Part shown: one piece after another, positions 2,906 to 56,670 of the stretch
Numbering within the stretch: position 1 is the stretch's first letter
Layout: each line of letters starts with the position of its first letter
NCBI GenBank assembly: GCA_030745695.1
Contig: JASLOB010000001.1
Location: forward strand, 936-64,935
Origin: Candidatus Nanoarchaeia archaeon
GTDB taxonomy: Archaea > Nanobdellota > Nanobdellia > SCGC-AAA011-G17 > JACPNG01
Reading direction: 5' to 3'
DNA length: 64,000 bases
Position numbers and translations under genes: made by a program
Notes under the pieces: generated by a model
Databases searched by the model: none
Told to the model about the DNA's origin: nothing
The model's input: the letters and a program-made list of their open reading frames with translations, nothing else

Positions 2906-3006
2906 ATTGCCATATCTATGTATGTTTTATTTTTTTTAAAATTCTTTATATTATATTAATCAATTAGATCTCTCTTAAGAATCATATTCCTAAAAATCAA
3001 TAAAAT

Positions 3007-3426
3007 TTATTCTCTTAAATAAGGTTTTCTTAATCTATCTATCCAATCTGCATGGAATTCATATCCATTACCCCAAGATCTTAATTTATTAACTATCTCT
3101 CTTTTTCCTATTACAATTTCTTTAAACATTTTTAGGGCAAGACCATCTTTTTTAGAGGGAGGATTACTAATTTTTGGCACTTTGATTCCACCTAAGCTGT
3201 CATACTCCCCAAGCATATAACAAGGTGTTAAGATTACATATTCATTTCCTCTAACTTTTTTAACATTAGTTATAACTCCTAACCTAAGACCAGCATCAAC
3301 TCTTCTTGATTTCAAAAGAAGTAATTCATATCTCTCAACTTCTTTTATCTTTCCTTCAACTATTCCTGCACCATTTAAGTTATTACTAAATTGCATTGGT
3401 AGCATGATTTCTAATTTTTCTATCAT
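3007..3426 (-). CDS. hypothetical protein (139 aa)
   Basis: ORF with a TATA-like box upstream; I recognise no motif in it. Confidence 0.4.
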   Translation of the reverse strand: MIEKLEIMLPMQFSNNLNGAGIVEGKIKEVERYELLLLKSRRVDAGLRLGVITNVKKVRGNEYVILTPCYMLGEYDSLGGIKVPKISNPPSKKDGLALKMFKEIVIGKREIVNKLRSWGNGYEFHADWIDRLRKPYLRE

Positions 3427-3499
3427 GAAAACTTTCAGAAAATAACGGTTTATAAAACTTTATTTTTTCAACTCATCAAATCTTTCTTTTAAAAGAATT

Positions 3500-4762
3500 C
3501 TATTTCCCTTCGGCTGTTAATCTTGCATTATCAATAAAACCATCAGGAGTCCAAAAACCTTTAAGGAAAGCTTTATCTATAAGACTTCTTCCCTCTCCTT
3601 CATAAGAAACACCACGCTTTTCAAATTCTTCCAAAGCTCTTTTAACTGGTTGAGCACAATATCTTAATTCACTAACTAAACTGTATTTTGGATTACCCTG
3701 GGTATCAAAACTATCCTTATGATATTCAACAAAACCTAAAGGAAAATTAGGATCTAATGTAACTTCAGATAATAGTCTAACTCTAGTGTCATAATCTAAA
3801 TCTTTATTACCTAAAAGAGAAATAGCATATTGACCCAATCTAGCTTCGTAATCAGATAATCTATTACCATCTTGAGCATCTTGGTATATCCCATCAAATT
3901 TATGTCCTATATCCAATTTTCTTTGAGTTTCAGGAGAATCCTTAACATCACCAAAAATAACTCTCTCATAAAATTGAGCAACAGATTCTAAAGTTGATTC
4001 ATTTACTGCTGAACTTTTTCTAAGGAAATAAGGAAGTCCATCTGATTTAGACAACATATGATTCAAACCATGACCCATTCCCTCATGACCATACAATCTA
4101 ATTAATTCTCTCTCCCTTATACCAAGACTACCATCTTCATTAAGATAATAAATATTTGGTATTCCTAATGCTAAAGTATTTGTCAGAGGACTAAAATAAG
4201 ATCTATCTTGTTCTGTAGGAACAGCATGTATATCCCTTAAAAAATCTCCCACTTCTGTCAATTGTTTCAACATTTTACCCAATGTAGTGTGATATCTTTG
4301 AATATCATCTTCTGCATTTTCTTGAGCCCTTCTTCTTATACTAGGAACGTCCAAAGGAAGTTGCAATTCATAACTTTCAACATCATTAGTTTTAAATAAT
4401 CTCTCAATAGATTCAAAAGCATCATCTCTATTCAACTCTAACCAAGGTCTTAATTCTTCTATATCTTTTCTAGGAATTCCATGAATATCAATCACAGTAT
4501 CAAAATCATAATGCCTACCACTTAACCTTTGTTCAATCCTACTAGCTTCAGCAACTAATCTTCTTTTTAATTCAGAATCAACTAATTCCCCTCTAGAATT
4601 CACATTTCTTACATCTGGTAAACTTTCTACTAATGAATTTAATCCACCGACTATATTAGCAGCTTCTTTATAAGGAAAAACTGTATATTTACTCTCAAAT
4701 CTACCTAATTTCTCTATTCTCTTTAATAATTTTTCAGCTTCCAAAACAATAACTTCATTCAT
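3500..4762 (-). CDS. hypothetical protein (420 aa) with an HEGMGH (HExxxH) motif; possible metal-dependent hydrolase
   Basis: Long ORF ending in TAG. It contains GHEGMGHGLNH, but the spacing is HExxxH rather than the canonical HExxH. Confidence 0.45.
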   Translation of the reverse strand: MNEVIVLEAEKLLKRIEKLGRFESKYTVFPYKEAANIVGGLNSLVESLPDVRNVNSRGELVDSELKRRLVAEASRIEQRLSGRHYDFDTVIDIHGIPRKDIEELRPWLELNRDDAFESIERLFKTNDVESYELQLPLDVPSIRRRAQENAEDDIQRYHTTLGKMLKQLTEVGDFLRDIHAVPTEQDRSYFSPLTNTLALGIPNIYYLNEDGSLGIRERELIRLYGHEGMGHGLNHMLSKSDGLPYFLRKSSAVNESTLESVAQFYERVIFGDVKDSPETQRKLDIGHKFDGIYQDAQDGNRLSDYEARLGQYAISLLGNKDLDYDTRVRLLSEVTLDPNFPLGFVEYHKDSFDTQGNPKYSLVSELRYCAQPVKRALEEFEKRGVSYEGEGRSLIDKAFLKGFWTPDGFIDNARLTAEGK

Positions 4763-5028
4763 AACATAAAAATCAATTTTGCCTTTATAAATCTTTCTAT
4801 TTGTAACTTCTTATAAGTAATGACATATGATAAAAGATTATAAACAAATAAATTAATTGGCTATCAAAATTTATTTTTTCAGTTCATCAAATCTTTCTAG
4901 AGGAATAAAAGTACATTCTTCATTTAATTTACATTTTTTACATGTTATTTTTATCATTTCTGGAGAATTAAATTCTATATCATTATTTTCTAAAAACTTA
5001 TGTAAATTTTTTAGATGTTCACATCCCA

Positions 5029-5493
5029 TTATTCTAAACCCCAATCATCTCCTATAGGTTTTCTTTTTGGTCTTTTATCATCAATTTTTTTATTATTAAC
5101 TTTTTTATCTTGTGTTTTAAAATAAACATCTCTATGAGATTTTAATCTTTTTAATTTAGCAATTAATATATTTCTAATTTTATCCCATAAAACTTTCTCA
5201 AAATCTTTTTCTTTTAACATATCTGGATAAACAGATATAAAATCTATTCTTTGGTTATGATAGATAGCTTGTTTTCTTTTCATTGATCTTTGATATTGAT
5301 CTTTATCTACCATCCCAAAATATTCTATAACAATATTAAAATCATCTAAATAAAAATCAGGGTGCCATATTTGCATCTTATCATCTAATTGATCTTTGAT
5401 TAAAATAGGTTTTTCATAAGTAAAAATAATTTTTCTTTTCTTTAAAAATTCAGCAATCTTCTTTTCACCATCTGATTTAAATTTTGGAGGCAT
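5029..5493 (-). CDS. putative PD-(D/E)xK (Vsr/DUF559-like) nuclease-fold protein
   Basis: The motif pattern ...WHPDFYL...IVIEYFG...K... resembles DUF559/Vsr-like endonuclease cores. The start is probably the internal Met (MPPKFKSD); the ORF track extends it to 5547. Confidence 0.35.
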   Translation of the reverse strand: MPPKFKSDGEKKIAEFLKKRKIIFTYEKPILIKDQLDDKMQIWHPDFYLDDFNIVIEYFGMVDKDQYQRSMKRKQAIYHNQRIDFISVYPDMLKEKDFEKVLWDKIRNILIAKLKRLKSHRDVYFKTQDKKVNNKKIDDKRPKRKPIGDDWGLE

Positions 5494-5580
5494 TATATTA
5501 AGATTGATAATGAATATAAAAAGATTTAGTTTATTAAGGTTAAACATAAGTTTTATAAGACTAATTCTTGTAATAGCCGC

Positions 5581-6591
5581 ATGAGAATAAGAAGAAAAAC
5601 TAAAGAAAATCTACTTTTTGGATTGTTAATCTTATTAGTATTATCTATATTATTAAATGCTTTTTTATTCTCAGAATATATATTTTTAGATTTTTTAAAT
5701 CCAAATAATGATTTTAAATTAGAAGAAGTTATAAAAAAATCAACTCCAGCTGTTGTTTCTATATTCTCTTCAGGCAAATCAGGATCGGGAGTGATTGTAG
5801 AAGATAATGGGTATATATTAACGAATGAACATGTTGTTTCTGGAGAAGAAAATATAACTATACTATTAGAAGATAATAGAATCTATCAAGCAAAAGTAGT
5901 AGGAATGGATGACAAAACAGATATTGCTTTATTAAAAATAGATGAAGATAATCTTCCAACTTTGAAATTTGGAAATTCTAATAGAGTAGAGGTTGGACAA
6001 CAAGTTATTACAATAGGACATCCTTTTGGATTAGCACATACAGTTACTACAGGAATTGTTTCTGGAAAGCATAGAAATAGGGGTCCAACATTATACCGAG
6101 ATTTTATACAAACAGATGCTTCTATCAACCCAGGAAATTCAGGAGGACCTTTACTAAATAAAGAAGGAAAAGTTATAGGATTGAACACATTTATTGTTTC
6201 AGATATAAATGCAGGAGAATCAGGATTTGCAATTCCAATTAATTTAGTAGAAAAAGTTTATGATCAATTATTAGAAGATGGAATAGTTGAAAGAGGTTAT
6301 TTTGGGGTTGATGTTATAGATATTGTAAATGTAAATAATAACACAAGAGAGGGTAGAATAGAAAAAGGATCTGAAATCGTTAATATTCAAAATGAAAGTG
6401 CTGCAGATAAAGCTGGATTAAAGATAGGAGACAAAATTATTGTATTAAACAACATTACAATTGAAAATACTAATCATTTAAGAAATGAGATAGCTTGGAT
6501 TTCTCCAGGAGAAAAAGCTTTAGTTACTATATTAAGAGATGATGAACAAATTGAAATTGAAATAGTTCTAGATCAAAGACCTGACGAGTAA
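5581..6591 (+). CDS. htrA: HtrA/DegP-family trypsin-like serine protease with N-terminal TM anchor and C-terminal PDZ domain
   Basis: The catalytic triad context is present: TNEHVV, DIALLKI and GNSGGPLLN. A PDZ-like C-terminus is also present. Confidence 0.85.
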   Translation: MRIRRKTKENLLFGLLILLVLSILLNAFLFSEYIFLDFLNPNNDFKLEEVIKKSTPAVVSIFSSGKSGSGVIVEDNGYILTNEHVVSGEENITILLEDNRIYQAKVVGMDDKTDIALLKIDEDNLPTLKFGNSNRVEVGQQVITIGHPFGLAHTVTTGIVSGKHRNRGPTLYRDFIQTDASINPGNSGGPLLNKEGKVIGLNTFIVSDINAGESGFAIPINLVEKVYDQLLEDGIVERGYFGVDVIDIVNVNNNTREGRIEKGSEIVNIQNESAADKAGLKIGDKIIVLNNITIENTNHLRNEIAWISPGEKALVTILRDDEQIEIEIVLDQRPDE

Positions 6592-6622
6592 AGCTTATAA
6601 ATCGATAAAATAAAATTTATAT

Positions 6623-6932
6623 GTAGGAAGGTGTCTAACTTTCGAGATTATCTTGAGGAAAGTCCGTCCACCAATTATAGGTTGCTTCTGCAAAGAAGTC
6701 CCAGAAATGGGAGGCAACCGCTAAGAAACGACACGGCCTATTAGAGCAAGGATGTTGTGAAAGTTTTAGTAATAGAACTGAGATAACCAACTGAGTATTT
6801 TGATAGGATACGTTGAAACGACGAGTCCCAACCGGTGCAAGTCTTAGACGCTTAGTTGAATGTTAGAATGAACTTTCAATGATCCATTTTTAATGGTTAG
6901 AGTTCAACAGAAGATGGCTTATGCCTTCCTAC
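6623..6932 (+). ncRNA. rnpB: RNase P RNA (archaeal type)
   Basis: The P4 5' strand (gaggaaagtccg at 6654..6665) and P4 3' strand (acagaag..ggcttatg at 6906..6923) are both present. A P1 helix forms between gtaggaagg and ccttcctac. Confidence 0.8.
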
Positions 6933-6933
6933 T

Positions 6934-7710
6934 TTAATATATTAATTCTCCAGTTCTACTTGAATTTAATCCCCTACTCTCAATTCTAATCTCTCCTCTA
7001 GATGTAACTTTACCAATAACTTTAGACTCAATATTATGTGTTCTTGCAACCTCAATAACTTCTTTTGGTTCAGGAGTTATGATAATCATGCCTTGTCCCA
7101 TATTCCAAGTCCTATATGCTTCTTCATCTGTAACATTTCCATGTTGTTAACAATAAAACATTAGTTCAAAAGGATTAAAAGGATTATAAATATCTGCACC
7201 TAATCCATTTGGTTTTAAAATCCTAGACAATTTTCCTGGAATCCCACCTCCAGTTATATGTGCAATTCCATGTATCTTAGCTTTTGGTTCTCCACCAAAA
7301 CCTCCAAACATATCAACAACTGCTTTAGTATAAATTCTCGAAGGATGTAAAACTAAATCTCCTAAACTTTCAAAACCATACTTAAATTTATGCCATCCAT
7401 CTCCATTAGGAACTAGGATATCTGCTCTTGAGAAACATGATTCATAGACAAAACTAGCTTCAAATAAAGGTTTTTTCTTTTTTAAAGAATCTTTAGATAT
7501 TTCTAAGTTTACTTTAAAATCCTTAAATGGGAGGTCAATTCCATCTGGATATAATTTTTTAGCTAATATTCCTATTTTAGTACCTTGATCCATAACAAAT
7601 TGATCTGCTACTGTAGGTTCTTCTATTTTATGATTTTCATGTATAAATGTCCATAAATGATTATAACAGTTTATACCCATTAAGTATTTAGATTTAGTTA
7701 ATAGTTGCAT
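6934..7710 (-). pseudogene. purM: purM (AIR synthetase) C-terminal half remnant with an in-frame TAA at 7147..7149
   Basis: The PurM C-domain motifs IHGIAHITGGG and TWNMGQGM both occur in one reading frame, and that frame is interrupted by a TAA. The N-terminal domain is absent here; it lies at 14212..14877. Confidence 0.7.
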
Positions 7711-7811
7711 TATTCAATTAAGTGAATTAGATTTATAAATTATTCGTTAGTTTACTAAAAGGGTTTATAAGTCTAGATAACATATTATAATTATAGGAGA
7801 AATTAAAAAAA

Positions 7812-8498
7812 ATGAACCAAATAATACCAAAAGCATTGTTCTATGCATATGAAAAACATAAGAAAGATAAAAGAAAAGGTACAACCATTCCATATATAGT
7901 TCACCCAGTTGATGTTGCTTCTATTTTGATTAAAGAAAGAAATCATTCTAAAGTATCTGATGAATTGATAGCTGCTGGTTTACTACATGATGTTGTTGAA
8001 GACACTGAGACTTCATTTAAAGATATTGAAAAGGAATTCGGAAAAAAAGTAATGATTCTAGTTAAAGCTGCTTCAGAGCCTGAAAAACATAAAGTGGAGT
8101 CTGAAAAGGAGAAAAGAAAAAGTTGGAAAGGAAGGAAAGAGCATACAATTGAACTTATCAAAAAAGAGAAGAGAGATGCTAAACTACTCAGCTGCGCAGA
8201 TAAGCTTGCCAATATAAGGGACATGATTAATGATAAATTTACTGGTAATGAAAAAGAATTCTGGAAAAGATTCAATACCTCACCTGAAGAGACTAAGTGG
8301 TATTATCAAATTATGTGTAAAGCTTATAGATTTGGAGATAATATCAAAGATACTAATACATTCAAAATGTTTGCAAGGGAAGTAAAAACATTAACAGGTG
8401 AAAAGCCTATGAAAAAAGAAAGAAGAACAAAAGAAGACAAAAGACAAGAAGAATTAGATATAAAAGATTATACTGAAATGTCTTATCAGAATAGTTAA
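7812..8498 (+). CDS. HD-domain (p)ppGpp-hydrolase-like protein (SpoT/RelA HD, Mesh1-type small alarmone hydrolase) with a Lys/Glu-rich tail
   Basis: HPVDVASIL...AAGLLHDVVEDT...FGKKV matches the SpoT/RelA HD hydrolase signature. Confidence 0.7.
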   Translation: MNQIIPKALFYAYEKHKKDKRKGTTIPYIVHPVDVASILIKERNHSKVSDELIAAGLLHDVVEDTETSFKDIEKEFGKKVMILVKAASEPEKHKVESEKEKRKSWKGRKEHTIELIKKEKRDAKLLSCADKLANIRDMINDKFTGNEKEFWKRFNTSPEETKWYYQIMCKAYRFGDNIKDTNTFKMFAREVKTLTGEKPMKKERRTKEDKRQEELDIKDYTEMSYQNS

Positions 8499-8510
8499 TA
8501 AGAAAAGAAA

Positions 8511-8729
8511 ATGACAAATAAGAAAAAATTAACAAAATCAAGGAAAGAATATATGGATGAATGGGATAAAATTGAAAAAAAAGTTATGGATGAAATAGAT
8601 GAAGTAACAGAAAAAAAAGCATTTAAATCTGATTCTTTTTTAACTAAAGTGATGAATAAACAAGAAGATGAACTTTTAGGTTATAATGGTTGTAGCATGG
8701 AAAAAAGTTCTATTAAGTTTGTAAGATAA
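8511..8729 (+). CDS. hypothetical small protein (72 aa)
   Basis: ORF only. Confidence 0.3.
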   Translation: MTNKKKLTKSRKEYMDEWDKIEKKVMDEIDEVTEKKAFKSDSFLTKVMNKQEDELLGYNGCSMEKSSIKFVR

Positions 8730-8778
8730 AATTAAAATAACAATAATATTTAAATAAATTAAGAAAATAGATATTTTA

Positions 8779-9297
8779 ATGGAAGATGAAGGTTTTTTTA
8801 AAGGAATATTAAAAACATATCTAATCTTATTTGTTATAAATGTTGTAATAGCTTTTATTCTTTTTCAATTTTCTCCAGAATCCATACCTACATCCTCTGA
8901 TGGTTTTGAATTCGGAGATTATGAAAATAGTACAAGAATTTTTTTCTTTCCTTTATTTCAAATAATGTTTTTATTTATAGGATTAATACTCTATTATATG
9001 GCTCCTTTAATGAATACTCTTTTGTTTTTTTTCCGTGGAAAATATATGAAATTTTTTAGTTGGATGTTTGGAACAGAGGTTAATGAAGAAAACTTTACAT
9101 ATTTTATTAAAAAATATACTAAAGCATTGATTCTAACCGTATCTATAGCTGTTATTCTTAGCTACATCCCATTATTAGCATTTATATTTGAATTAGAATC
9201 TATAATGTTCTTATTTTTAATTTATTTTATTGTTCTTATTATAGGTGGGATAGCTTCCATAGTCTACTTTTGTAGAAAATTGAATCAAACTTATTAA
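8779..9297 (+). CDS. hypothetical integral membrane protein (172 aa, 4-5 predicted TM segments)
   Basis: Several hydrophobic stretches. Confidence 0.45.
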   Translation: MEDEGFFKGILKTYLILFVINVVIAFILFQFSPESIPTSSDGFEFGDYENSTRIFFFPLFQIMFLFIGLILYYMAPLMNTLLFFFRGKYMKFFSWMFGTEVNEENFTYFIKKYTKALILTVSIAVILSYIPLLAFIFELESIMFLFLIYFIVLIIGGIASIVYFCRKLNQTY

Positions 9298-9351
9298 ATT
9301 TTAAAGAATACAATAATACTTAATAAGAGTATAATTTCTTAGCAATCTAAA

Positions 9352-11190
9352 ATGATGTGGAGTTTATATAACAAAGAAAAATTTCTAGAGCCTTTTGTAT
9401 TTTCTAATAATAAATCCCAATTAGATGTTGTACGAGAAACTATAGAAGCAATTAAAGAAGGGAATAAAATAATCTTTATTAAAGGGGTATGCGGAACAGG
9501 CAAAAGTGCAATTGCATTAAATTTAGCCAAAGAATTAGGTAAAACTTCTATTGTTGTTCCTGTTAAACCATTACAAAAACAATATGAAGAAGATTATACT
9601 GATAAACTTCATATCATAAAAAATAATAAAGAAAAATTAAATATTTCTATTATTGATGGAAGGGGTAATCATAATTGTGTGTTTGAGGGGGATTGTAATG
9701 CAGATAATAAATTTTTACCTTGTGATATTGAGATTAAAAAAGAAAATATGGATTTGATTAGAGGTTATATTAACCAAAATCCTTCAGTTAAACTAAAAGA
9801 TTTTGAGGATGTAGAGGATGTAAGAAGAAAATCAATAGCTCCTGCCTGTCCTTATTGGTCTCCAATTATATGTAAGGATTGGTTTGGAGGAAAGTATGAT
9901 TTGGAAGATTCTGAAGAGTTACACTATAAAGGGTTGAATGATAAAACTTTTACTTATTACAAAAGAAAAGAAGGTTGTGGATATTATGGGCAATTTATTA
10001 GTTATGTTAATTCTGATGTTATAATTTTTAATAGTAAAAAATATGAACTAGAAACTGTTATGGATAGAAAACCTTCAACTGAGGTAGAGATTATAGATGA
10101 ATGTGATGAATTTTTAGATAATTTATCTAATGAAAAAAATATAAATCTAGATAGGTTATCAAGAAATTTAACTAATATAACAACTGATGATCTAGAGTTG
10201 AAAGAATTAACAATAGAGATTAATGATTTAGTAGCTGAGATATTAAGAGATGATAATGTTTTAAATTCTATAAAAACTAAAGAAATATTATTAGTTAAAG
10301 ATACAAAAATTTTAGAGTTATTAAAATGGATATTAGACAATCCTAAATTAGTAGATCTGACAGAGGATGAAACCTCTAATTATATTCTTAATGTTTATCA
10401 GACTGGAAAGATGTTTGAAGATTTTTTTGATGAAACTTATTTAACATTCTATAAAGATGATTATAATAATCTAATTGCTAATTTAATAACAGTTAACTTA
10501 GATAAAAAATTAAAAGAATTTTTAGATAAAAATAAAGTATTTGTGATGATGAGTGGAACAGTTCATTCTGATTCTGTTTTAAAAGAGATATTTGGGGTTA
10601 GAGAGTTTAAAGTTGTTGAGGCTGAAATAAATCATAGGGGGGGAATAACTAATGTTAGAAGTGGGTTGGAAAAAATATTTGATTATAGATATTTAAATCA
10701 AGAAGGTTCAAGAGAAGAGTATTTAAGAGCATTATCTAAATCTGTTGAGATAGCTGAAAAACCTATATTAATCCATGTTAATGCTTTTTTAGACCTGCCA
10801 ACCGAAGAAGAATGTTACAAATATAATATTCCTAATCTTAAAACAAGAAAAGAATTACAAGATGAACAAGATAAATTTAAGAAAGGAGAATTAGTTCAAC
10901 AGTTTAAAAATAAAGACATTGATGTTTTGTATTCAACTAAATGTAATAGAGGGGTAGATTTCCCTGGAGATATTTGTAATAGTATAATCTTTACTAAATA
11001 TCCTAATCCTAACATAAGTTCTTTATTTTGGAGAGTTCTTAAGAAAAGTAATTCAAGACATTTTTGGACTTTATTTGGGGATAAAGCTAAAAGAGAATTT
11101 ATGCAAAGGATTTATAGAGGGTTGAGATCTGAAGAGGATCATATTAATTTGTTAAGTCCAGATTTAAGAGTTTTTAATTTTTCTAAGTAA
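9352..11190 (+). CDS. XPD/Rad3/DinG-family SF2 helicase with a 4-Cys FeS domain
   Basis: Walker A GVCGTGKS and DECD (DExx) box are present. The Cys cluster is HNCVFEGDC...LPC...PACPYW...ICKDW. The C-terminal motif CNRGVDFPGD..IIFTKYPNP resembles the XPD GxxSEGxDF...GLPFP motif. Confidence 0.65.
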   Translation: MMWSLYNKEKFLEPFVFSNNKSQLDVVRETIEAIKEGNKIIFIKGVCGTGKSAIALNLAKELGKTSIVVPVKPLQKQYEEDYTDKLHIIKNNKEKLNISIIDGRGNHNCVFEGDCNADNKFLPCDIEIKKENMDLIRGYINQNPSVKLKDFEDVEDVRRKSIAPACPYWSPIICKDWFGGKYDLEDSEELHYKGLNDKTFTYYKRKEGCGYYGQFISYVNSDVIIFNSKKYELETVMDRKPSTEVEIIDECDEFLDNLSNEKNINLDRLSRNLTNITTDDLELKELTIEINDLVAEILRDDNVLNSIKTKEILLVKDTKILELLKWILDNPKLVDLTEDETSNYILNVYQTGKMFEDFFDETYLTFYKDDYNNLIANLITVNLDKKLKEFLDKNKVFVMMSGTVHSDSVLKEIFGVREFKVVEAEINHRGGITNVRSGLEKIFDYRYLNQEGSREEYLRALSKSVEIAEKPILIHVNAFLDLPTEEECYKYNIPNLKTRKELQDEQDKFKKGELVQQFKNKDIDVLYSTKCNRGVDFPGDICNSIIFTKYPNPNISSLFWRVLKKSNSRHFWTLFGDKAKREFMQRIYRGLRSEEDHINLLSPDLRVFNFSK

Positions 11191-11256
11191 ATCAACAGTA
11201 AGTATTATATATTTTATTGATATTTCTATTATTATTATTGAATAAGGAGGTAGAAA

Positions 11257-11448
11257 ATGATATCTGTGAAAAGCTTTACAACCTTAGATTCTGCACTTTG
11301 GGAAACATCTATATTTACAATTACTTTGTTTCTTGTATCTGTTTGGTCAGGTTTTGCAAATTGGGTGATTAATACAAATTGGATGTGGTTCTTAGTTATA
11401 GGGATTCTTTTAGGAATCAAACCTCTAATTAAAGTGTTTAAGAATTAA
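11257..11448 (+). CDS. small membrane protein (63 aa)
   Basis: Strong SD (aaggaggt) 7 nt upstream; two hydrophobic segments. Confidence 0.45.
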   Translation: MISVKSFTTLDSALWETSIFTITLFLVSVWSGFANWVINTNWMWFLVIGILLGIKPLIKVFKN

Positions 11449-11474
11449 TTAATTTTAGAAAGTTGAAGAATATT

Positions 11475-11945
11475 TTAAGAAGAATCAGTACTACGATGAG
11501 GAAATAAAGCTTCCTTTTCTTTCCATTCTTTATTTATTTCTTCACTTGTCTTTATTCTTTCAATAAATTCAATGTAGATTTCCATTCCTTCCATCTCTCT
11601 TAATCTTTCAATTATTTGTTCTTTTCCTACTGAGAATTTTGTAAATCTAGTATAATCTTCAAGATGTCTATTAAAACCATAAGAACAAGGATTAAATAGA
11701 GGGATAGTTGTACTACCAATACCTCCAAAACTTGTTGGTTTCTCTAAATAAAAAGCATCTTTTTTAGTATGGTCACGATAACTAGCCCATTTAGTTAAAT
11801 AAGGAGGTTTGTCTTTACTTTCCATAAGAATTAAATCTCCAAGTTGTGCAGCCCTAGTTTGTACAAGTGGTTCAGTCATAGGACATACAAATTCTGGATA
11901 ATGTCTATCCCTATCTGGATTTAATCTCGTTTTATCAATTACCAT
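11475..11945 (-). CDS. hypothetical protein (156 aa)
   Basis: ORF on the strand opposite its neighbours; I recognise no motif in it. Confidence 0.4.
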   Translation of the reverse strand: MVIDKTRLNPDRDRHYPEFVCPMTEPLVQTRAAQLGDLILMESKDKPPYLTKWASYRDHTKKDAFYLEKPTSFGGIGSTTIPLFNPCSYGFNRHLEDYTRFTKFSVGKEQIIERLREMEGMEIYIEFIERIKTSEEINKEWKEKEALFPHRSTDSS

Positions 11946-12110
11946 ATTAATATAAGTATTCCACTATTTATAAAACTTACTATTTGTTATTACTCAATAG
12001 CAATTAATTATCCTCAGTCTAAACATTATGGAGATTAAAACGAAAATATATTAAATGTTCTAGTTGTTATAAAATGAAATTTCAAAAAATAAAAAGAATA
12101 ACAAATAAAA

Positions 12111-12758
12111 ATGAAAATGTTAGAAAAAACCCCAATTAATGCTTCCTGGCTTGGATCTCATGAATATTGTGAGTGGAAGTGGTATCTAGAAAATGTACTA
12201 AAAGAGAAAGTTCCAATAACACAATCAATGATTGTTGGAAAAAATATTCATCAAGAAAAAGAAGATAAATTTAAAGAAGTTGCTGTTCCAACTACACCTG
12301 AAGAATTTCTAAAATCTAAAGTTTATACAATAACTAAAGAGATGTATCTAAAAGAAGAATTTGATGATTTTATTTTAAAAGGAAAGATAGATGAATTAGG
12401 GGTTGATACAAATAATTTATATGTTATTGATGATAAACCAAGAGCAAAACCCTATCTAGGAGTTAAAAGACAGATATGGGCTTATTGTATTTTAATAAAA
12501 GAATTTGTAAATAAAAATTATCCTGAACATTCTAATAAAAAAGTTTTAGCAATTTTAAGAGATAGAGATTCTAATGTAGAAATATGGAAGGAAGAGTTTA
12601 ATGAAGAAAATCTTAATGAAGTTTTTAGTGTAATCAATAGAATGTTGTTATTATTTAAAAAAGAGATTAATCCTGAACATAATAATTATTCATATAAATG
12701 TAAGGCTTGTGTTTTACATAAAAAGAATCAATTGTTATCTCATTTGATAAAGGCATAG
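12111..12758 (+). CDS. Cas4-like/RecB-family PD-(D/E)xK nuclease (DUF83-like) with a 4-Cys cluster
   Basis: One N-terminal Cys (EYCEWKW) and three C-terminal Cys (YKCKACV) are present. The core reads GKIDEL...YVIDDK. Confidence 0.55.
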   Translation: MKMLEKTPINASWLGSHEYCEWKWYLENVLKEKVPITQSMIVGKNIHQEKEDKFKEVAVPTTPEEFLKSKVYTITKEMYLKEEFDDFILKGKIDELGVDTNNLYVIDDKPRAKPYLGVKRQIWAYCILIKEFVNKNYPEHSNKKVLAILRDRDSNVEIWKEEFNEENLNEVFSVINRMLLLFKKEINPEHNNYSYKCKACVLHKKNQLLSHLIKA

Positions 12759-13309
12759 GTTCTGGATCTGGAAGGAGTATCTCAGAATTTCACATCTTAA
12801 AATCTTTAGATTATTGCAAAGATTTGCTAATTAACTATGGTGGGCATAAACAAGCAATAGGGATGAAAATTAGTATTAAAAGAATAGGTAAGTTTAGGAA
12901 TAAAATAAATGATTATGCAAAGGATAAACTAAAACCATCAGATCTAATTCCTAAGATAAAAGTTGATGCTCTTCTTTCTTTTGAGGATATAAATTTAAAT
13001 TTAGTTAAAGAAATTGATTCATTAAGCCCTTTTGGTGTGGGGAATCCTTCACCAAAGATATGTTCTCTCAATCTAAAGTTAGAAGATGATCCATTTATTC
13101 TAAAAGAGAGGCATATAAAACTTAGATTAGGAAATAATCTAAAAGTTTTAGAATGTATTGGATTTGAGATGATTAGTTTTTTTGATGAAATAATGAAGAA
13201 CATAGATAAGATTAATATAGTTTATTCTCCAGAAATAAATGTATGGAATGGGGTAGAACAAATAATATTAAATTTAAAAGATATTAAAGGTGGAAAGATT
13301 GAAATTTAG
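12722..13309 (+). pseudogene. C-terminal fragment of a RecJ-like DHH/DHHA1 phosphoesterase (N-terminal DHH domain missing)
   Basis: It carries the DHHA1 GGH..A.G motif (NYGGHKQAIGM) and the RecJ C-terminal SPFGVGNPSP motif. The frame is open from 12722 and overlaps the end of the Cas4-like gene. It has no ATG; the track start at 12824 is a TTG. Confidence 0.5.
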
Positions 13310-13402
13310 ATAATCCATTATTACTTTTAAGTGAATTCTACTAAAAAATATAAGTCTATAAATACTTTAAAGACTTCTTACTAAAAAAAGGAGGTTTCTA
13401 AG

Positions 13403-13747
13403 ATGCATGAAGTACAAAGAATAGCATTACAAAATATGTTAGAAAATTTAAAAGAAGGAAAAGAGATACATACAGAAACTATGATCTTCGTTTTAGAAGC
13501 TGCTCTACAAGAGGAGTTTGAATACGAGGATGTTAAATATAAAGAGTTTGAGATGGAAGATGTATTCAATAGGGTATTAAGAGGAAAAAATTCACTATCT
13601 GAAGAAAAAATACATCTAAAGTCTATAAGAAAAGCTGAAAATCATATTAATGTATTAAGAGAAGGGTTAGATGATTTATACAAACAAATTAATTCATTAA
13701 ATGTTGATTTAGATAGGAAAGAAAGAGTAAAAAGAGCTCTTTCTTAG
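13403..13747 (+). CDS. hypothetical coiled-coil protein (114 aa)
   Basis: SD aaggaggt upstream; ORF only. Confidence 0.4.
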   Translation: MHEVQRIALQNMLENLKEGKEIHTETMIFVLEAALQEEFEYEDVKYKEFEMEDVFNRVLRGKNSLSEEKIHLKSIRKAENHINVLREGLDDLYKQINSLNVDLDRKERVKRALS

Positions 13748-13772
13748 TTAGAATTAGAAGATCAATGTTAAT

Positions 13773-14087
13773 ATGGAAAAATGGAAAAAGATTCATTGTG
13801 ATCTTTGTAAAAAGATAGCTGGAAAGATACGTCCTGTATGTGAAGGTATCAATGAAATTAGTAAATCTCAAGCTAATATACAATATTTTCATTCTAAAAA
13901 GAAGATATATAAAATTCTCTACTTTTGTAGTGTTTTTTGTGCTTTAAAAAAATATTTTGAAATAAATAAAAAAAAATGGGATGAAATCCTACTTGGTTTC
14001 CATCTTCCAGATAAATCTAAATTTTATTATACTTTAGAACATAAAAACAATAGAGATATAATAAAAAGAGAAAGTATGATTATTTAA
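13773..14087 (+). CDS. hypothetical Cys-rich (zinc-finger-like) protein (104 aa)
   Basis: Cys pairs CDLC...CEG and a later pair CSVFC suggest a zinc finger. Confidence 0.35.
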   Translation: MEKWKKIHCDLCKKIAGKIRPVCEGINEISKSQANIQYFHSKKKIYKILYFCSVFCALKKYFEINKKKWDEILLGFHLPDKSKFYYTLEHKNNRDIIKRESMII

Positions 14088-14211
14088 TATTAAATATTCT
14101 GGATCTTTTAACAATCCCTTTTCTATACAAAAACATTGCGATCATAATACCTAACCCAATACCTGTTATCAGACCGCCAATTGTAAACCAAATGTATTCA
14201 TTCATTTTTCA

Positions 14212-14877
14212 TCAAGATATCATCAATAAACAGATAGCATCTGCTTTTACTGCTGCTGGAGGTACTTTTGTAGCAAGTAGTGTTATCGCTCCAACTGCCA
14301 AACATCCTACATCTGCAAGTTCTCTTGGACCAAGTCCTGATTTAGGGATAGCATATTCTATACTACAATCTACCCCACTCCCCTTACAGAATTCTTTAAA
14401 TGCATTCTCTTGAGGAGGTCTTTTAGCACCAGGACTGGTCTTAGCATCAATGATTTTTAATTTAGTTATCTCCCCATTTTTTTGAAAAACTTCTAAAAAA
14501 TCAGGTTCTTTTTTGAAAGTTCGTTCAAAATTTACCCTTATAAAATCCCTAGTACTCTTTCCACCCCTCACAACTGCATCATCACAAACCATAGCAAATA
14601 AATCATGAGCAACAGTTTTATGTTTAGCCATTCTTTCGGCTATTTCTATTTTAGTGCCAACCCCATCAAATCCTAAATTCATATAAGTATCATCTGGTAG
14701 CCCTCAAACATTCACTGCTCTAAGGCCTGAAAAATCAGAAAAGATTTCAACAACTTCCCCAAGATTTCCTTTTCTATTTTTCCAAGTAAGTTTAGCTGCT
14801 TCATAAAGAACTTTTGATGCATCATCACCAAGTTTGATATTTACTCCAGAATTTTCATAATTTGATCTTTCTTGCAT
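14212..14877 (-). pseudogene. purM: purM (AIR synthetase) N-terminal half remnant with an in-frame TGA at 14704..14706
   Basis: The PurM N-domain signatures YENSGVNIKLGDDA and LGFDGVGTK...DLFAMVCDDAVVRGG...DVGCLAVGAI are present. A TGA interrupts the frame 57 codons after the ATG. The remnant ends where the 7710 fragment begins in a PurM alignment. Confidence 0.7.
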
Positions 14878-14928
14878 TTGTTAAATTTCTTTTTTTATTC
14901 TACTATTTCTTTTTACTCTTGCTCTTGT

Positions 14929-15219
14929 TCAATTTTCTATTTCAGAAAGACGTTCTTCTATAGTCTCTTTAATGCTTAATAAGATCTCCCTATCAGCCCC
15001 ATCAATTATAATTGAATCACTACACGTTTCTATCTCAACTCTACTTCCACGAGCAATAGATATCCCTTGAGTACAAAATGCTTTATGTGCACTAACACTT
15101 GTTTGTGCTATAACATAACCTTCATTTTCATTATTTCCTTCAGATCCATTATAATCATAATTGCGATCTGACTCACCTTTCCTAAGAATTCTATAAACTG
15201 GGAAATTAATCTCTAACAT
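14929..15219 (-). CDS. hypothetical protein (96 aa)
   Basis: ORF only. Confidence 0.35.
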   Translation of the reverse strand: MLEINFPVYRILRKGESDRNYDYNGSEGNNENEGYVIAQTSVSAHKAFCTQGISIARGSRVEIETCSDSIIIDGADREILLSIKETIEERLSEIEN

Positions 15220-15283
15220 TTTTCTTTATTACTATAAATTTTAGAAGAAGTGACAAACTTATAAAACTTTCTAAATTATTTAA

Positions 15284-16057
15284 TTATCCTGTAAATAATC
15301 TTCCAGTTACTAATTTTTTAAAGAAATTTTTAACTTTAGATAAAAAATTTGTTTTTTCTTGGATTACTTCTTTAGTTTGATCTTTAACTTCTTCTTTAAT
15401 CTCTTCTTTTATTTGTTGAGGTTCTTCTTTAATTTCTTCTACTACTTCAACTTCTTCTACTACTTCAATCTCTTCTTGAACTCCACAACCAGAAATATCT
15501 TCATTAAAACATGTTCCATCTTCACAATAATCTTTTGTGCATTCTTCATTATCTTCACATTGAGAGGTTTTAATACAAAAAAATTGATGATAGCATTTTT
15601 TCTTTTTACAAGTATCTTCTGTAATAGAATCTTTATCATCACAATCTACATCCTCTTTACATTCTGGAATTATAATCAATTTACATTGTTCATTACTACA
15701 TTCATATCCTGATTTACATCCACAATCTGAACAACAATTATTTTTTTCTACATCATCACATTTATCATCTCCACATATATAGATTGAAGAAGCAGATATA
15801 TCTGCATAATTAATTTCATCGTCACCAGCATAAAAAATTTCTAAAACTTCTATCTCTAATCCATTAACAATTTTAGTTTCAAATTCATTTAAAATAGCAC
15901 CTTGGCCATCGACATCTATTTTTATTGAGTTAGGACTAACACCATTTAAAGTTAGATTACTATTACTAACAACCATATTTTCATTTGTCTTTAATTTATC
16001 AGCTAAGGATATATTAGCAAGGATTAATATCATTAATATAAGAATTATCCACCTCAT
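15284..16057 (-). CDS. secreted Cys-rich protein with acidic EEVEVVEEIKEE repeats (257 aa)
   Basis: It has an N-terminal signal peptide, dense Cys clusters (CCSDCGCKSGYEC...) and a C-terminal Glu/Val/Ile/Lys repeat. Confidence 0.55.
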   Translation of the reverse strand: MRWIILILMILILANISLADKLKTNENMVVSNSNLTLNGVSPNSIKIDVDGQGAILNEFETKIVNGLEIEVLEIFYAGDDEINYADISASSIYICGDDKCDDVEKNNCCSDCGCKSGYECSNEQCKLIIIPECKEDVDCDDKDSITEDTCKKKKCYHQFFCIKTSQCEDNEECTKDYCEDGTCFNEDISGCGVQEEIEVVEEVEVVEEIKEEPQQIKEEIKEEVKDQTKEVIQEKTNFLSKVKNFFKKLVTGRLFTG

Positions 16058-16133
16058 TTTATTATGAATATTAACTTATTTTTAATGTTTTCTAAAACAA
16101 AAGATTTTTATACTAATCTAATCACAAACTAAA

Positions 16134-16304
16134 ATGGCAGATGAAAAAATACAAATGCCTTCTTCAGGAGGAGGATTAGTAAGATATTTTGAAGATTATA
16201 AAAGTAAATTACAATTTAAACCTCATTATGTTATTGCTTTCATACTAATAGTTGTAATAATAGAATTGATTCTTTTTAGGGTTGGTTCCAGATTTTTAAG
16301 TTAA
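16134..16304 (+). CDS. secG: preprotein translocase Sec61 beta subunit (56 aa; not in the ORF track)
   Basis: MADEKIQMPSSGGGLVRYFEDY... followed by a single C-terminal TM segment matches the archaeal Sec-beta signature. It sits immediately upstream of NAC. Confidence 0.65.
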   Translation: MADEKIQMPSSGGGLVRYFEDYKSKLQFKPHYVIAFILIVVIIELILFRVGSRFLS

Positions 16305-16305
16305 A

Positions 16306-16632
16306 ATGTTTCCAAACGTAAATCCAAAACAATTAGAAAAAGCTATGAAAAAGCTTGGAGTAAAACAAGAAGATATAGAAGCTTCTGAAGTTTTAATAAA
16401 AACAAAAGATAAAGATTTAGTAATAAGAAACCCAAATGTAGTTAAAGTAAACATGATGGGTCAAGAAACATTTCAAATTACTGGAGATATAGAAGAACAA
16501 GAAAAAGAATTGTTCAATGAAGAAGATGTTAAAACTGTAATGGAACAAACTAACTGTTCTAAAGAAGAAGCAATTGAAGCTTTAGAAAAAGAAAAAGATT
16601 TGGCTGCAGCAATCTTATCTTTAAATCAATAA
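16306..16632 (+). CDS. nac: nascent polypeptide-associated complex protein (archaeal NAC alpha with C-terminal UBA)
   Basis: A NAC domain (MMGQETFQITG) is followed by a UBA-like C-terminus (CSKEEAIEALEKEKDLAAAI). Confidence 0.8.
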   Translation: MFPNVNPKQLEKAMKKLGVKQEDIEASEVLIKTKDKDLVIRNPNVVKVNMMGQETFQITGDIEEQEKELFNEEDVKTVMEQTNCSKEEAIEALEKEKDLAAAILSLNQ

Positions 16633-16662
16633 TATTTATATATTTTCCAACTATGAATATAT

Positions 16663-17154
16663 ATGGAAGTTTTAAGGAGTTTAATAAAAGAAGCAAATAT
16701 GTTATTTAACACAGCAGATCATTTAACTTACATAACTTATCCTACAGTAAGAGAAAATAAATTAATGATAACAATAATTGAAAATTTATACAATTCATTA
16801 TCAAAAGGAATGGACGCAATTTTATATTATGACAGAATGTATAAAAGAATTTCTCCTTTCTCTGATAACTTTAATGTGAAACTAGAAGTTTTTAAAACAA
16901 AATGTGCTCCAAGGTATAATATAGATAGAGAATTTGTTTTATTAATCAATGATTTAAAACAGATTGTAGATCATAGAAAAACATCTCCAATTGAATTTAG
17001 TAGAAATGATAGATATATTATATGTAGTGAAGATTATAGGATGAAATCATTAACAATAGAAAAACTAAAAGAATATCTAGCCAAATCAAAAACATTTATA
17101 GGGAAGTTAAACAATATTTTTAGAGAACATGATAGAAGAATCAGACAGTATTGA
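16663..17154 (+). CDS. hypothetical protein, paralog A (163 aa)
   Basis: It shares the N-terminal ADHLxY(I/V)T motif and overall pattern with the downstream ORF. Confidence 0.45.
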   Translation: MEVLRSLIKEANMLFNTADHLTYITYPTVRENKLMITIIENLYNSLSKGMDAILYYDRMYKRISPFSDNFNVKLEVFKTKCAPRYNIDREFVLLINDLKQIVDHRKTSPIEFSRNDRYIICSEDYRMKSLTIEKLKEYLAKSKTFIGKLNNIFREHDRRIRQY

Positions 17155-17575
17155 AGATGCTCAATCTCAACTAAAGAGAGCAGACCATTTGTTATATGTA
17201 ACATTAAAGTATACAAGAACGGTTGATGTAATTAAGAGTATAATAAAAAGATTCATATCTGCGTTTGATCATTCTGTTGAAGAAATGCTAGAAAAGTCTA
17301 AAGATAAGAAAAGAATTAAAACTATTCCTAAATCCCCTATTGAAAAAATTGAATTAATTAAAAAAATAGTTAAAACTAAAGAAATGAGAGATTATATAAA
17401 GTTCTATTATTTACTTAGAACAATAGATAAAGCTACATTTAAACCAAGAGAAGAGTATAGAAAGCATGTAACATTAGTAACGCCAAAACATGAAGTAGAT
17501 GTAGAAAAGATAAAAGAATTCTATGAAAAAACAAAAGAATTTGTAGGATTCTCACATGAATTCAAAGGAAGATGA
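17129..17575 (+). CDS. hypothetical protein, paralog B (148 aa)
   Basis: Tandem paralog of 16663..17154. Its start overlaps the upstream gene and its stop overlaps the MinD-like start. Confidence 0.45.
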   Translation: MIEESDSIEDAQSQLKRADHLLYVTLKYTRTVDVIKSIIKRFISAFDHSVEEMLEKSKDKKRIKTIPKSPIEKIELIKKIVKTKEMRDYIKFYYLLRTIDKATFKPREEYRKHVTLVTPKHEVDVEKIKEFYEKTKEFVGFSHEFKGR

Positions 17576-18345
17576 CAAGATACATTACATGTATATCTGG
17601 AAAAGGAGGAGTGGGTAAAAGTACTACTTCTATCAACTTAGGGGCAGCATTTACTTATTTTGGTAAGGATACCACAGTTGTTGATGCAAATTTGACCACA
17701 CCCAATGTAGGTGTTCATCTAGGAGTTCCAATTGTTCCAATTAATTTAAATCATGCTTTACAAGGAAAGAATCATATAAGTGAAGCAGTTTATTTACATC
17801 CTGTTGGAACAAAAATTGTTCCTGCTGGAATCTCAATTAATGAGATGAAAAATACAAATCCTGGAAATTTAAGAAGGGTTCTAAGAGGATTGTTGGGCAC
17901 AACTGATTTAGTTTTGATAGATTCTGCAGCAGGGTTAGGAAGAGAAGCGTTACTAGCAATTGAATCTGGAGATGAGATATTAATTGTTACAAATCCAGAA
18001 CTTCCTGCAATAACAGATGCACTAAAAACAATTAAAGTAGCAGAAGAATTAGGAAAAAAAGTAACTGGAGTAGTGTTAACTAGAACTAAAGAAGAAAGAG
18101 GAGATTTATCTGTAAAAAATATAGAAATTATGCTTGATAAAAAAGTTGTTGGTGAAATTCCAGAAGATGAATCTATAAGGGAAGCATTAATAATGAAAGA
18201 TGTTGTAGTTTATACTCACCCTAAAAGTAATGCTGCAGTAAGTTATAAAAAATTAGCAGCTGCATTATTAAATAGAGAGTATGAAGAAGAAATTGAAGAA
18301 GGAACATTTAAAAAATTATTAAGAAAGTTAAAATTGGTTAGATAA
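17572..18345 (+). CDS. minD: MinD/ParA-family P-loop ATPase
   Basis: It has the deviant Walker A SGKGGVGKST and MinD-like length and motifs. Confidence 0.75.
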   Translation: MTRYITCISGKGGVGKSTTSINLGAAFTYFGKDTTVVDANLTTPNVGVHLGVPIVPINLNHALQGKNHISEAVYLHPVGTKIVPAGISINEMKNTNPGNLRRVLRGLLGTTDLVLIDSAAGLGREALLAIESGDEILIVTNPELPAITDALKTIKVAEELGKKVTGVVLTRTKEERGDLSVKNIEIMLDKKVVGEIPEDESIREALIMKDVVVYTHPKSNAAVSYKKLAAALLNREYEEEIEEGTFKKLLRKLKLVR

Positions 18346-54089: not shown

Positions 54090-54187
54090 CGCCCTGACCG
54101 GGATTCGAACCCGGGTTGTAGCCTCGACAGGGCATCACGGTATATGATTAAATATACTTACGTGCTAGGCCACTACACTATCAGGGC
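54090..54187 (-). tRNA. tRNA-Asp(GTC) precursor with a 25-nt intron in the 5' strand of the anticodon stem (between positions 28/29)
   Basis: Removing 54158..54134 gives a perfect cloverleaf with anticodon arm tagcc-ctGTCga-ggcta and T-loop ttcgaat. The gene is 3 nt from tRNA-Lys. Confidence 0.55.
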
Positions 54188-56480: not shown

Positions 56481-56486
56481 ATACTC

Positions 56487-56581
56487 TGGGCCTAGACGGA
56501 TTTGAACCGTCGACCTCTGGCTGACCTAAGCCAAAGTGGCCATATAAGACCAGCGCTCTAACCAAGCTGAGCTATAGGCCC
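56487..56581 (-). tRNA. tRNA-Ile(TAT) precursor with a 20-nt intron at the canonical 37/38 position
   Basis: Ile-type body gggcctatagctcagcttggttagagcg, anticodon stem ctggt/gccag, loop cttata|a after removing 56542..56523. Confidence 0.55.
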
Positions 56582-56670
56582 ACACTTCAAAAATGGATTA
56601 GTTAACTTTTAAATGTTTCTTATATGTTGTCCATAGCAAAATTTATAACATACTTCTTTAGATTAATCTC

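Follow-up and report, generated by a model that had tools for sequence, protein, structure and literature searches.

An XPD/DinG-like helicase in a probable patch of illegitimate recombination and gene decay in a marine DPANN archaeon

In reduced genomes, genes are known to be disrupted and chimeric pseudogenes to arise through microhomology-mediated illegitimate recombination or through the capture of DNA at double-strand breaks, and pseudogenization and rearrangement in such genomes are in general well known. Here we describe a locus of this appearance in a stretch of 64,000 nucleotides from a Candidatus Nanoarchaeia archaeon (assembly GCA_030745695.1, contig JASLOB010000001.1, positions 936 to 64,935; the whole stretch is referred to as the window, and positions are counted from its first letter unless the locus of a relative is named). 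Two pieces of a purM-like gene flank a block of genes at positions 7711 to 14211, with components in known families: an HD hydrolase, an XPD/DinG-like helicase, a Cas4-like nuclease, and a RecJ remnant. The original prediction took this block for an accessory or defense cassette inserted inside purM. We conclude, with a probability of approximately 0.62, that illegitimate recombination and gene decay, specific to this lineage, shaped the region and that it is neither a mobile element nor a working cassette.

Like the events described from reduced genomes, the locus combines truncated genes joined at similar stretches, loss of target sequence, an absence of recombinase or repeat signs, and nonsense mutations that appear to be later. 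It departs from typical cases in having three junctions within 7 kb, two of them in frame, and in the apparent capture of an intact, essential-looking helicase. Integration of the type known from Sulfolobus spindle-shaped virus 1 (SSV1) yields the same formal layout on one strand: the N-terminal part of the target, the C-terminal part of the incoming gene, its N-terminal part farther on, and the C-terminal part of the target. Compared with that system, the locus has flanking pieces of different families, no tyrosine recombinase, and a deletion of 117 codons from the target. Below, L-numbers denote loci of relatives and P-numbers homologous proteins used for comparison.

Remains of a purM-like gene and its chimeric reading frames

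The purM-like gene belongs to an AIR-synthase-related family of approximately 375 residues that is common in DPANN archaea, with 60 to 68% identity overall. Two fragments of it are present (residues 1 to 106 and 220 to 375), co-oriented and in order on the minus strand. The central ~117 residues (approximately residues 107 to 219) are absent in every frame and on both strands of the region, and an AIRS N-domain contiguous with AIRS_C in one open frame was not found. Each fragment also carries an in-frame stop: a TGA at 14704 to 14706 in the N fragment, where homologs have a conserved Gly codon (GGA), and a TAA at 7147 to 7149 in the C fragment, where homologs have a conserved Gln codon (CAA). 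We considered recoding of stop codons and rejected it, since the two stops differ and each lies one base from the sense codon of the homologs; they are therefore signs of decay. The purM-like gene is dead. Genes on the opposite strand do interrupt purM, as originally proposed, but the interruption is not the clean insertion that the proposal implied, with ~117 codons missing and two stops.

Among relatives, an intact purM-like gene stands alone in two Woesearchaeota and lies in a pur operon in one genome; no conserved neighbors of the intact gene were found in these relatives. The operon at locus L172 (positions 3000 to 9203) retains the order purE-purC-purB-IMP cyclohydrolase-AICARFT-purM, and a full-length RelA/SpoT protein (621 amino acids [aa]) is encoded 5 kb away. 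The 64-kb window contains no other pur genes. De novo purine synthesis is commonly missing in DPANN (PMC8091004, PMC7414124), and the decay of purM fits an erosion of purine biosynthesis in this group.

The open reading frames (ORFs) that abut the block at 7711 and 14211, originally read as its boundaries with the two halves of purM, are themselves chimeras. The real boundaries between purM and other DNA lie at approximately 7393 to 7404 and 14557 to 14574 and enclose ~7.2 kb of non-purM DNA. On the left, a 187-aa ORF (7147 to 7710, minus strand) fuses residues 1 to 106 of a DUF2779-family nuclease in frame to purM residues 220 to 375. On the right, a 156-aa ORF (14212 to 14682, minus strand) runs in frame from the purM piece (residues 1 to 106) into 115 non-purM residues, which form the C-terminal half of a protein family that we call family X. 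The DUF2779 relatives P0004, P0007, and P0010 are 350-aa proteins, and P0004 carries PF11074; the fragment in the window stops just before the E-V-K-S motif, without the PF11074 region, and falls short of the full length of ~350 aa.

Both outer joins lie where the two parents look alike. The left junction (7390 to 7404) falls in a shared G-[DE]-x-W stretch, in which the window reads PNGDGWHKFKY; with a caret marking the join, DUF2779 relatives read P.G..W^DIIEVKS and purM relatives HGE(E/K)W^HKETY. The right junction (14557 to 14574) falls in a shared V-x-G-G stretch, in which the window reads DDAVVRGGKSTRDFI, purM reads ..DDAVVRG^AEPV, and family X reads ..F(I/V)(I/V)(A/G)GG^K(T/N)T(R/K)(D/E)FI. 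At both outer junctions, the parental homology ranges overlap by ~12 to 18 nt (a few codons), and both fusions are in frame because the joins fall in short stretches where the parent proteins resemble each other. A third junction lies inside the block, at 12716 to 12722, where homology to Cas4 ends at 12716 and a RecJ frame opens at 12722. Junction repeats, a suggested mark of insertion, were not found: the block ends carry no direct or inverted repeats, and the longest string shared by the two outer junctions is 8 nt, a length reached by 32% of shuffles.

Thirteen contigs from Tara Oceans, Joint Genome Institute, and other marine assemblies encode exactly the helicase protein of the block. 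Six assemblies, from different samples and assemblers, were compared over positions 4500 to 18000 and are 99.95 to 100% identical to the window. The arrangement is real and fixed in one marine population, and it is not a chimera, because it recurs nearly identically in independent assemblies.

A core helicase in a recurrent neighborhood

The helicase of the block shares with the XPD/Rad3/DinG family a Walker A motif, a DExx box, four cysteines between them, and a Helicase_C_2 domain (PF13307; E = 2.2e-9, 38.1 bits against a cutoff of 25.3 bits). Motifs I and II (GxGKS with G48, K51, and S52; DECD with D249-E250-C251-D252) are invariant in 25 homologs, as are four cysteines (C109, C124, C166, and C209) between Walker A and the DECD box, which are putative 4Fe-4S ligands. 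The protein matches the PADLOC model typeIV_DinG (1.6e-32) and phrog_2488 (7e-36) at full length for both, and its family profile hits the PDB entry 9kqh_A ("DNA 5'-3' helicase") at 4e-8. No match to Pfam DEAD_2 or to an NCBIfam XPD or DinG model was found, and a single-sequence search of the PDB returned none.

More than 1,900 homologs of this helicase were found at E <1e-5. The best 120 align over ~100% of the protein at 47 to 73% identity, and the named ones among these 120 are from Woese-, Pace-, and Nanoarchaeota. In the closest and only closely syntenic genome (GCA_016185605.1, locus L007), the ortholog (P0034) is found on a different contig, with a PIG-L deacetylase on one side and MazG/NrdR/ribonucleotide reductase on the other; we take the two proteins as orthologs because their identity of 72% is close to that of the flanking HtrA (70%). 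The cluster NAC-163 aa-148 aa-ParA, which flanks the block in the window, adjoins the helicase in 8 of 85 ortholog loci. At L089 (helicase identity, 73%), Sec61beta-NAC-ParA is 6.5 kb from the helicase; at L099, L105, L112, L113, L137, L161, and L168 (49 to 54%), NAC is adjacent or a few kilobases off. The helicase-NAC neighborhood is recurrent in this group, and the helicase is a vertically inherited core gene of Woese-, Pace-, and Nanoarchaeota that ranks among the best-conserved genes of these archaea. These observations do not support the proposal that the block is accessory, defensive, or mobile and does not belong to the DPANN core.

Within the XPD/Rad3/DinG family, the block helicase differs in forming its own conserved DPANN clade, which behaves as a housekeeping gene and is not CRISPR associated. 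It differs from the DinG of type IV CRISPR systems (Csf4) in having no csf or cas genes or repeat array nearby: the only other match to a cas model is the Cas4-like gene, and the orthologs lie among housekeeping genes. A tblastn search of ~945 kb around the 85 helicase orthologs found no homologs of the HD, Cas4-like, RecJ, or purM-like proteins or of the small ORFs.

Other genes of the segment and its surroundings

The features of the region are listed in Table 1. Counting ORFs of at least 60 aa, nine lie on the plus strand and one on the minus strand between the purM pieces, just as first described, and hidden Markov model searches bear out the SpoT-like HD protein, the XPD-like FeS (iron-sulfur) helicase, the Cas4-like nuclease, and the RecJ fragment. 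What is labeled purM, Cas4, or RecJ here is a fragment or a fusion.

Table 1. Features between and around the pieces of the purM-like gene
Feature	Position	Strand	Match or remark
RNase P RNA (archaeal)	6623..6932	+	Rfam RF00373, 153.5 bits; left anchor of the variable 8.4-kb segment
purM-like C fragment, residues ~220-375	6934..7404	-	AIRS_C 1.8e-18; tblastn P0148 residues 220-375, 65% identity
DUF2779-family PD-(D/E)xK nuclease, N-terminal 106 residues	7393..7710	-	50-58% identity to P0004, P0007, P0010
Stand-alone HD_4 (RelA/SpoT-type HD hydrolase, predicted), 228 aa	7812..8498	+	Pfam HD_4 5.5e-19; phrog_990
Two small ORFs (72 aa; 172-aa putative membrane protein)	8511..9297	+	No family match, no homologs in related loci
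XPD/DinG-like FeS superfamily 2 helicase, intact, 612 aa	9352..11190	+	Helicase_C_2, ResIII, typeIV_DinG, phrog_2488
63-aa putative membrane ORF (+) and 156-aa ORF (-)	11257..11945	+/-	No family match
Cas4-like PD-(D/E)xK nuclease	12111..12716 (ORF to 12758)	+	TIGR00372, PADLOC Cas4
RecJ C-terminal remnant (DHHA1 end + OB domain, ~residues 357-546 of 546)	12722..13309	+	RecJ_OB 8.9e-25
ORFs of 114 aa (+), 104 aa (+), and 41 aa (-; putative membrane peptide)	13403..14205	+/-	No family match
Family X C-terminal half (~residues 105-219)	14212..14574	-	HMMER: 14 homologs besides own cluster, E 5e-22 to 6e-6
purM-like N fragment, residues 1-106	14557..14877	-	tblastn P0148 residues 5-106, 79% identity; TIGR00878 purM positions 57-95
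96-aa ORF	14929..15219	-	Inside the variable segment; absent from L007
Cys-rich secreted protein gene	15284..16057	-	Right anchor of the variable segment; L007 ortholog abuts RNase P

The HD protein aligns with positions 1 to 122 of the NCBIfam spoT_relA model, which correspond to the N-terminal HD. In this it resembles Mesh1-type and small alarmone hydrolases, its HD_4 domain (residues 8 to 138) matching the N-terminal hydrolase domain of RelA/SpoT. It differs from RelA/SpoT in having no synthetase, TGS, or ACT domain and in carrying a Lys/Glu-rich tail of 90 aa, and is a hydrolase by prediction.

The Cas4-like protein reaches 53.3 bits against TIGR00372 (cutoff, 65), with residues 12 to 202 on positions 4 to 174 of 180, and stays below the cutoff of Pfam PDDEXK_1 as well (18.7 versus 22). 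It matches six PADLOC Cas4 models (7.8e-15), all of which end at residues 200 to 204. With the Cas4 family (DUF83), which includes stand-alone, non-CRISPR members, it shares an N-terminal Cys, D...DxK and QxxxY-type motifs, and a C-terminal CxxC; it differs in its subcutoff score, in its truncation after the CxxC, and in lacking a CRISPR-Cas context. C20 and C197-x2-C200 are present. The last Cys that the spacing of Cas4 ligands leads one to expect, and with it the full set of one N-terminal and three C-terminal cysteines, is missing because the ORF runs on into RecJ-derived sequence, its last ~12 codons being RecJ-derived DNA in a different frame. The annotated RecJ ORF (12824 to 13309) matches only positions 391 to 545 of 546 in TIGR00644, and the RecJ-homologous open frame (GIGSGSGRSISEFHILKSLDYCKDLLINYGGH) begins at 12722, overlapping the end of the Cas4-like ORF. 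No RecJ sequence for the N-terminal two-thirds was found upstream in any frame, leaving the DHH, DHHA1, and OB set incomplete. Sequence searches of the PDB with the Cas4-like protein, the helicase, and the orphan gave nothing informative. By eye, the 104-aa ORF (13773 to 14087) contains a CxxC...FCSxxC pattern that looks zf-FCS/TRASH-like, with no Pfam hit.

Strong Shine-Dalgarno sequences had been pointed out upstream of 11257 and 13403. The motif AAGGAGGT does occur at a distance suited to a Shine-Dalgarno sequence, at 11244 and 13388, but it is neither enriched in the window (4 copies versus 1.96 expected) nor specific to the block: a crude scan found Shine-Dalgarno-like motifs before 2 of 9 block ORFs and before 5 of 57 others. 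Shine-Dalgarno use is not foreign to archaea.

Only 15 representatives of family X were found among 1.84 billion clusters (P0264 to P0277 and that of the window piece itself). All 14 homologs of the window piece (130 to 290 aa) align to it by their C-terminal halves. Full-length members (~220 to 290 aa) have a signal peptide, a K/E-rich linker, a GxxWEK..C..C region, and a hydrophobic, Cys-containing tail, and their N-terminal halves are unrelated to DUF2779. The matched region reads IVGGKxTxxFI...KEPDFLEV...KIKIIDAKTS...Q...C.V.YA.PK...CLL, and within it PD...DAK...Q is invariant. The family has no Pfam match. An alignment-based AlphaFold 2 model reached a predicted local distance difference test score of 73.9 (core, 79 to 97), and the best Foldseek matches of this model were the VRR-NUC domain of FAN1 (E = 0.07) and the Hjc resolvase (E = 0.21); no match had an E value of 0.001 or less. 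Judged by its motifs, family X appears nuclease-like, and its members may represent VRR-NUC-like DPANN nucleases, either secreted or anchored. The possibility that the X piece is diverged purM was rejected (hhalign probability, 0.03%). Nowhere in the region is the GC content higher than in the X fragment; we considered whether the GC-rich spot at 14250 to 14450 conceals a structured RNA or a tRNA attachment (att) site and rejected this, with no Rfam match at E ≤1.

The window as a whole has a GC content of ~28% and opens with an archaeal large-subunit (LSU) rRNA gene (1 to 2917). The closest genomes found for it are metagenome-assembled genomes of Woesearchaeota and Nanoarchaeota. L007 follows the gene order of the window: a 150-aa gene, HtrA, RNase P, the Cys-rich gene, and, farther on, NAC, 163 aa, 148 aa, ParA, ATP_bind_3, DUF2203, and beta-CASP. 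In L007, RNase P directly abuts the Cys-rich gene, and homology between the window and L007 runs through 6614 to 6949. A metagenome scan anchored on the Cys-rich gene found no relatives.

Some further features of these genomes were recorded. The protein of 150 to 172 aa encoded upstream of HtrA (5029 to 5547 in the window, 8841 to 9293 in L007) shows 78% nucleotide identity and has no Pfam family. ARAGORN called two tRNAs of ~97 nt with nonsensical anticodons, at 54090 to 54187 and 56486 to 56582; Rfam confirms a tRNA at 56487 to 56581, and both calls are probably intron-containing archaeal tRNAs. The LSU rRNA match of L007 (1545 to 5742) spans 4,198 nt against a model of 2,987 nt and is followed by a 215-aa ORF (5778 to 6425) that resembles a LAGLIDADG homing endonuclease, which suggests an rRNA intron or insertion absent from the LSU of the window. 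The ribonucleotide reductase of L088 (14330 to 18187) contains an intein (Intein_splicing and LAGLIDADG_3), and its L086 ortholog (838 aa) does not.

Origin of the arrangement

We propose that a purM-like gene once stood by itself, flanked by the RNase P RNA gene and the Cys-rich gene. This gene would have been broken and its central ~117 codons (~350 bp) swapped for a fragment of ~7.2 kb and of native composition, whose ends lay inside gene X (C-terminal half) and a DUF2779 gene (first 106 codons) and which carried the ordinary, intact helicase along with several further genes. Both ends would have been closed by microhomology-mediated illegitimate joining, likely when a resected double-strand break in purM captured a linear piece of chromosome that came from a close relative or a sister copy of the genome. 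The fusion of the Cas4-like gene to the RecJ remnant may reflect one more join of this kind, and the two single-base nonsense mutations in purM would have come afterwards. We infer from the arrangement described above how the pieces were joined, in what sequence the events took place, where the fragment came from, and in which direction the locus changed relative to L007. A single inversion was considered and rejected, as it cannot yield two fusions on the same strand.

The composition of the block reads as essentially native. The tetranucleotide distance of 7711 to 14211 from the rest of the window stands at the 63rd percentile of same-size windows, and the block has 26.1% GC against 27.7 ± 1.2%. 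In GC content at third codon positions (GC3), its genes lie at the 70th to 100th percentile, with the core helicase at the 74th. Signs of mobility were likewise missing. No ORF of the segment had an integrase, transposase, or recombinase family hit in Pfam, NCBIfam, PHROGs, or PADLOC, and we saw no CRISPR array, both in agreement with the original prediction. The segment ends showed no att core or target-site duplication and no duplicated RNase P 3' end, and Rfam revealed no structured RNA or tRNA target hidden in the segment. Scans of IMG/VR with the helicase, the Cas4-like protein, the HD protein, and the minus-strand 156-aa ORF between the helicase and the Cas4-like gene were all four empty, plasmid collections not being searched. 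In a phage collection, the best matches to the HD protein and the RecJ remnant had at most 37% identity, and the phage RecJ-like matches cover query residues 1 to 189. PADLOC returned isolated DinG and Cas4 model matches and no complete defense system.

Several observations weigh against our explanation. Codon frequencies of the block are shifted (L1 distance of 0.233 versus 0.166 ± 0.026, reached by 0.7% of resampled gene sets), the HD gene, at 21.8%, has a higher GC3 than any of the 53 genes outside the segment, which reach 19.4% at most, and the X fragment stands at 37% GC; these two, HD gene and X fragment, may have been acquired more recently. The compositional contrast that a foreign block was expected to show is seen in this mild codon shift and in the GC3 of the HD gene, but not in tetranucleotides or overall GC; with a composition largely like that of the flanks and no junction repeats, the case for an inserted cassette essentially fails on the grounds first put forward for judging it. 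Approximately half of the genes and fragments (HD, helicase, Cas4-like, RecJ, DUF2779, and X) are nucleic acid enzymes, which recalls defense and repair islands. The reciprocal product of the exchange (X N-half, purM middle, and DUF2779 C-part) was not found within the 64 kb, and the microhomology at the junctions is deduced from protein-level similarity to homologs and not from ancestral DNA. Finally, the entire interval from 6933 to 15310 (8.4 kb, purM pieces included) is missing at the syntenic site of L007. Both gain in the lineage of the window and loss in L007 may account for the 8.4-kb segment, which leaves room for an island.

Such an island is the most substantial of the alternatives, in which the 8.4-kb segment would be a decayed accessory or defense island, or what is left of a plasmid or virus that had integrated, beside RNase P, with a former nucleic acid-targeting system now eroding. 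We consider it unlikely. The absence of the segment from L007, the exact coincidence of its start with the 3' end of a structural RNA gene, its density in nucleic acid enzymes, and its codon-usage shift, HD outlier, and GC-rich X fragment are all in its favor, as are the matches of the four main proteins to PHROG families and of the helicase to typeIV_DinG. However, matches to superfamily 2 helicases, Cas4, and HD proteins are generic family matches, and the helicase is vertical, core, and set in the recurrent NAC-ParA neighborhood. Integrase, att site, CRISPR array, cas partner, and RNase P 3'-end duplication were none of them seen, IMG/VR holds no close relative, phage identities do not exceed 37%, tetranucleotides are native, and the gene combination is absent from the 85 helicase loci. 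It is improbable, to a greater degree, that the 7.2-kb segment is an integrase-free, relocating nuclease/helicase cassette moved among DPANN by microhomology-mediated capture, or that the 8.4-kb segment is an eroding, undescribed DPANN defense/repair island that includes family X.

The suggestion that helicase, Cas4-like protein, and HD protein form a working, undescribed nucleic acid-targeting module, cotranscribed on the plus strand, seems to us very improbable. The shared orientation and short intergenic gaps would suit an operon, and the parts recall Cas3-like (HD plus helicase) and Cas4 functions; yet the combination occurs in 0 of the 85 related loci, where relatives keep the helicase without these partners, and both the Cas4-like and the RecJ genes are truncated. 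The Cas4-like protein has lost its C-terminal Cys ligand region to the RecJ fragment, the HD domain is of the RelA/SpoT (p)ppGpp-hydrolase type and not of the Cas3 HD nuclease type, and a minus-strand gene and pseudogene fragments break the putative operon. Hardly tenable is an SSV-type integration, in which a circle would have recombined inside its own nuclease gene and left the DUF2779 N-terminal part and the purM-fused piece as its two halves. Circle integration would give just such a layout (purM-N, gene C-part, gene N-part, purM-C on one strand), and a forced MAFFT alignment set the second piece where DUF2779 continues, with 106 + 115 aa making ~220 aa. Against DUF2779, however, the second piece has an hhalign probability of 0.2% and BLASTP E values of 0.08 to 1.8 in conflicting registers, and it belongs to family X, whose own N-half (signal peptide, WEK...C motif) differs from DUF2779. 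The two pieces also differ in GC content (37% versus 27.7%), no junction core is shared, and ~117 purM codons are lost. Simple circle integration is unsuitable because it neither deletes 117 codons nor joins two different genes, and we rejected an SSV-like split of one nuclease gene, the junction pieces coming from two different genes. An assembly artifact, that is, a chimeric contig joined at short repeats, has next to no probability: the DNA does come from a metagenomic assembly, with junctions at short similar stretches, but the same structure, 99.95 to 100% identical, recurs across different samples, assemblers, and archives.

If the region is a patch of illegitimate recombination and gene decay, as we favor, then what appeared to be a defense or mobile cassette in a split gene would be a core helicase amid recombination debris. 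The locus would offer a clean, population-fixed example, with three mapped junctions, of a DPANN lineage losing a purine-pathway-type gene and shuffling its gene order. It also cautions that, in DPANN, matches to DinG and Cas4 models should be weighed against their context before a defense role is assigned. As minor by-products, the analysis points to an unnamed family of secreted, nuclease-like proteins (family X) and to a conserved DPANN clade of XPD-like helicases that current Pfam and NCBIfam XPD models miss.

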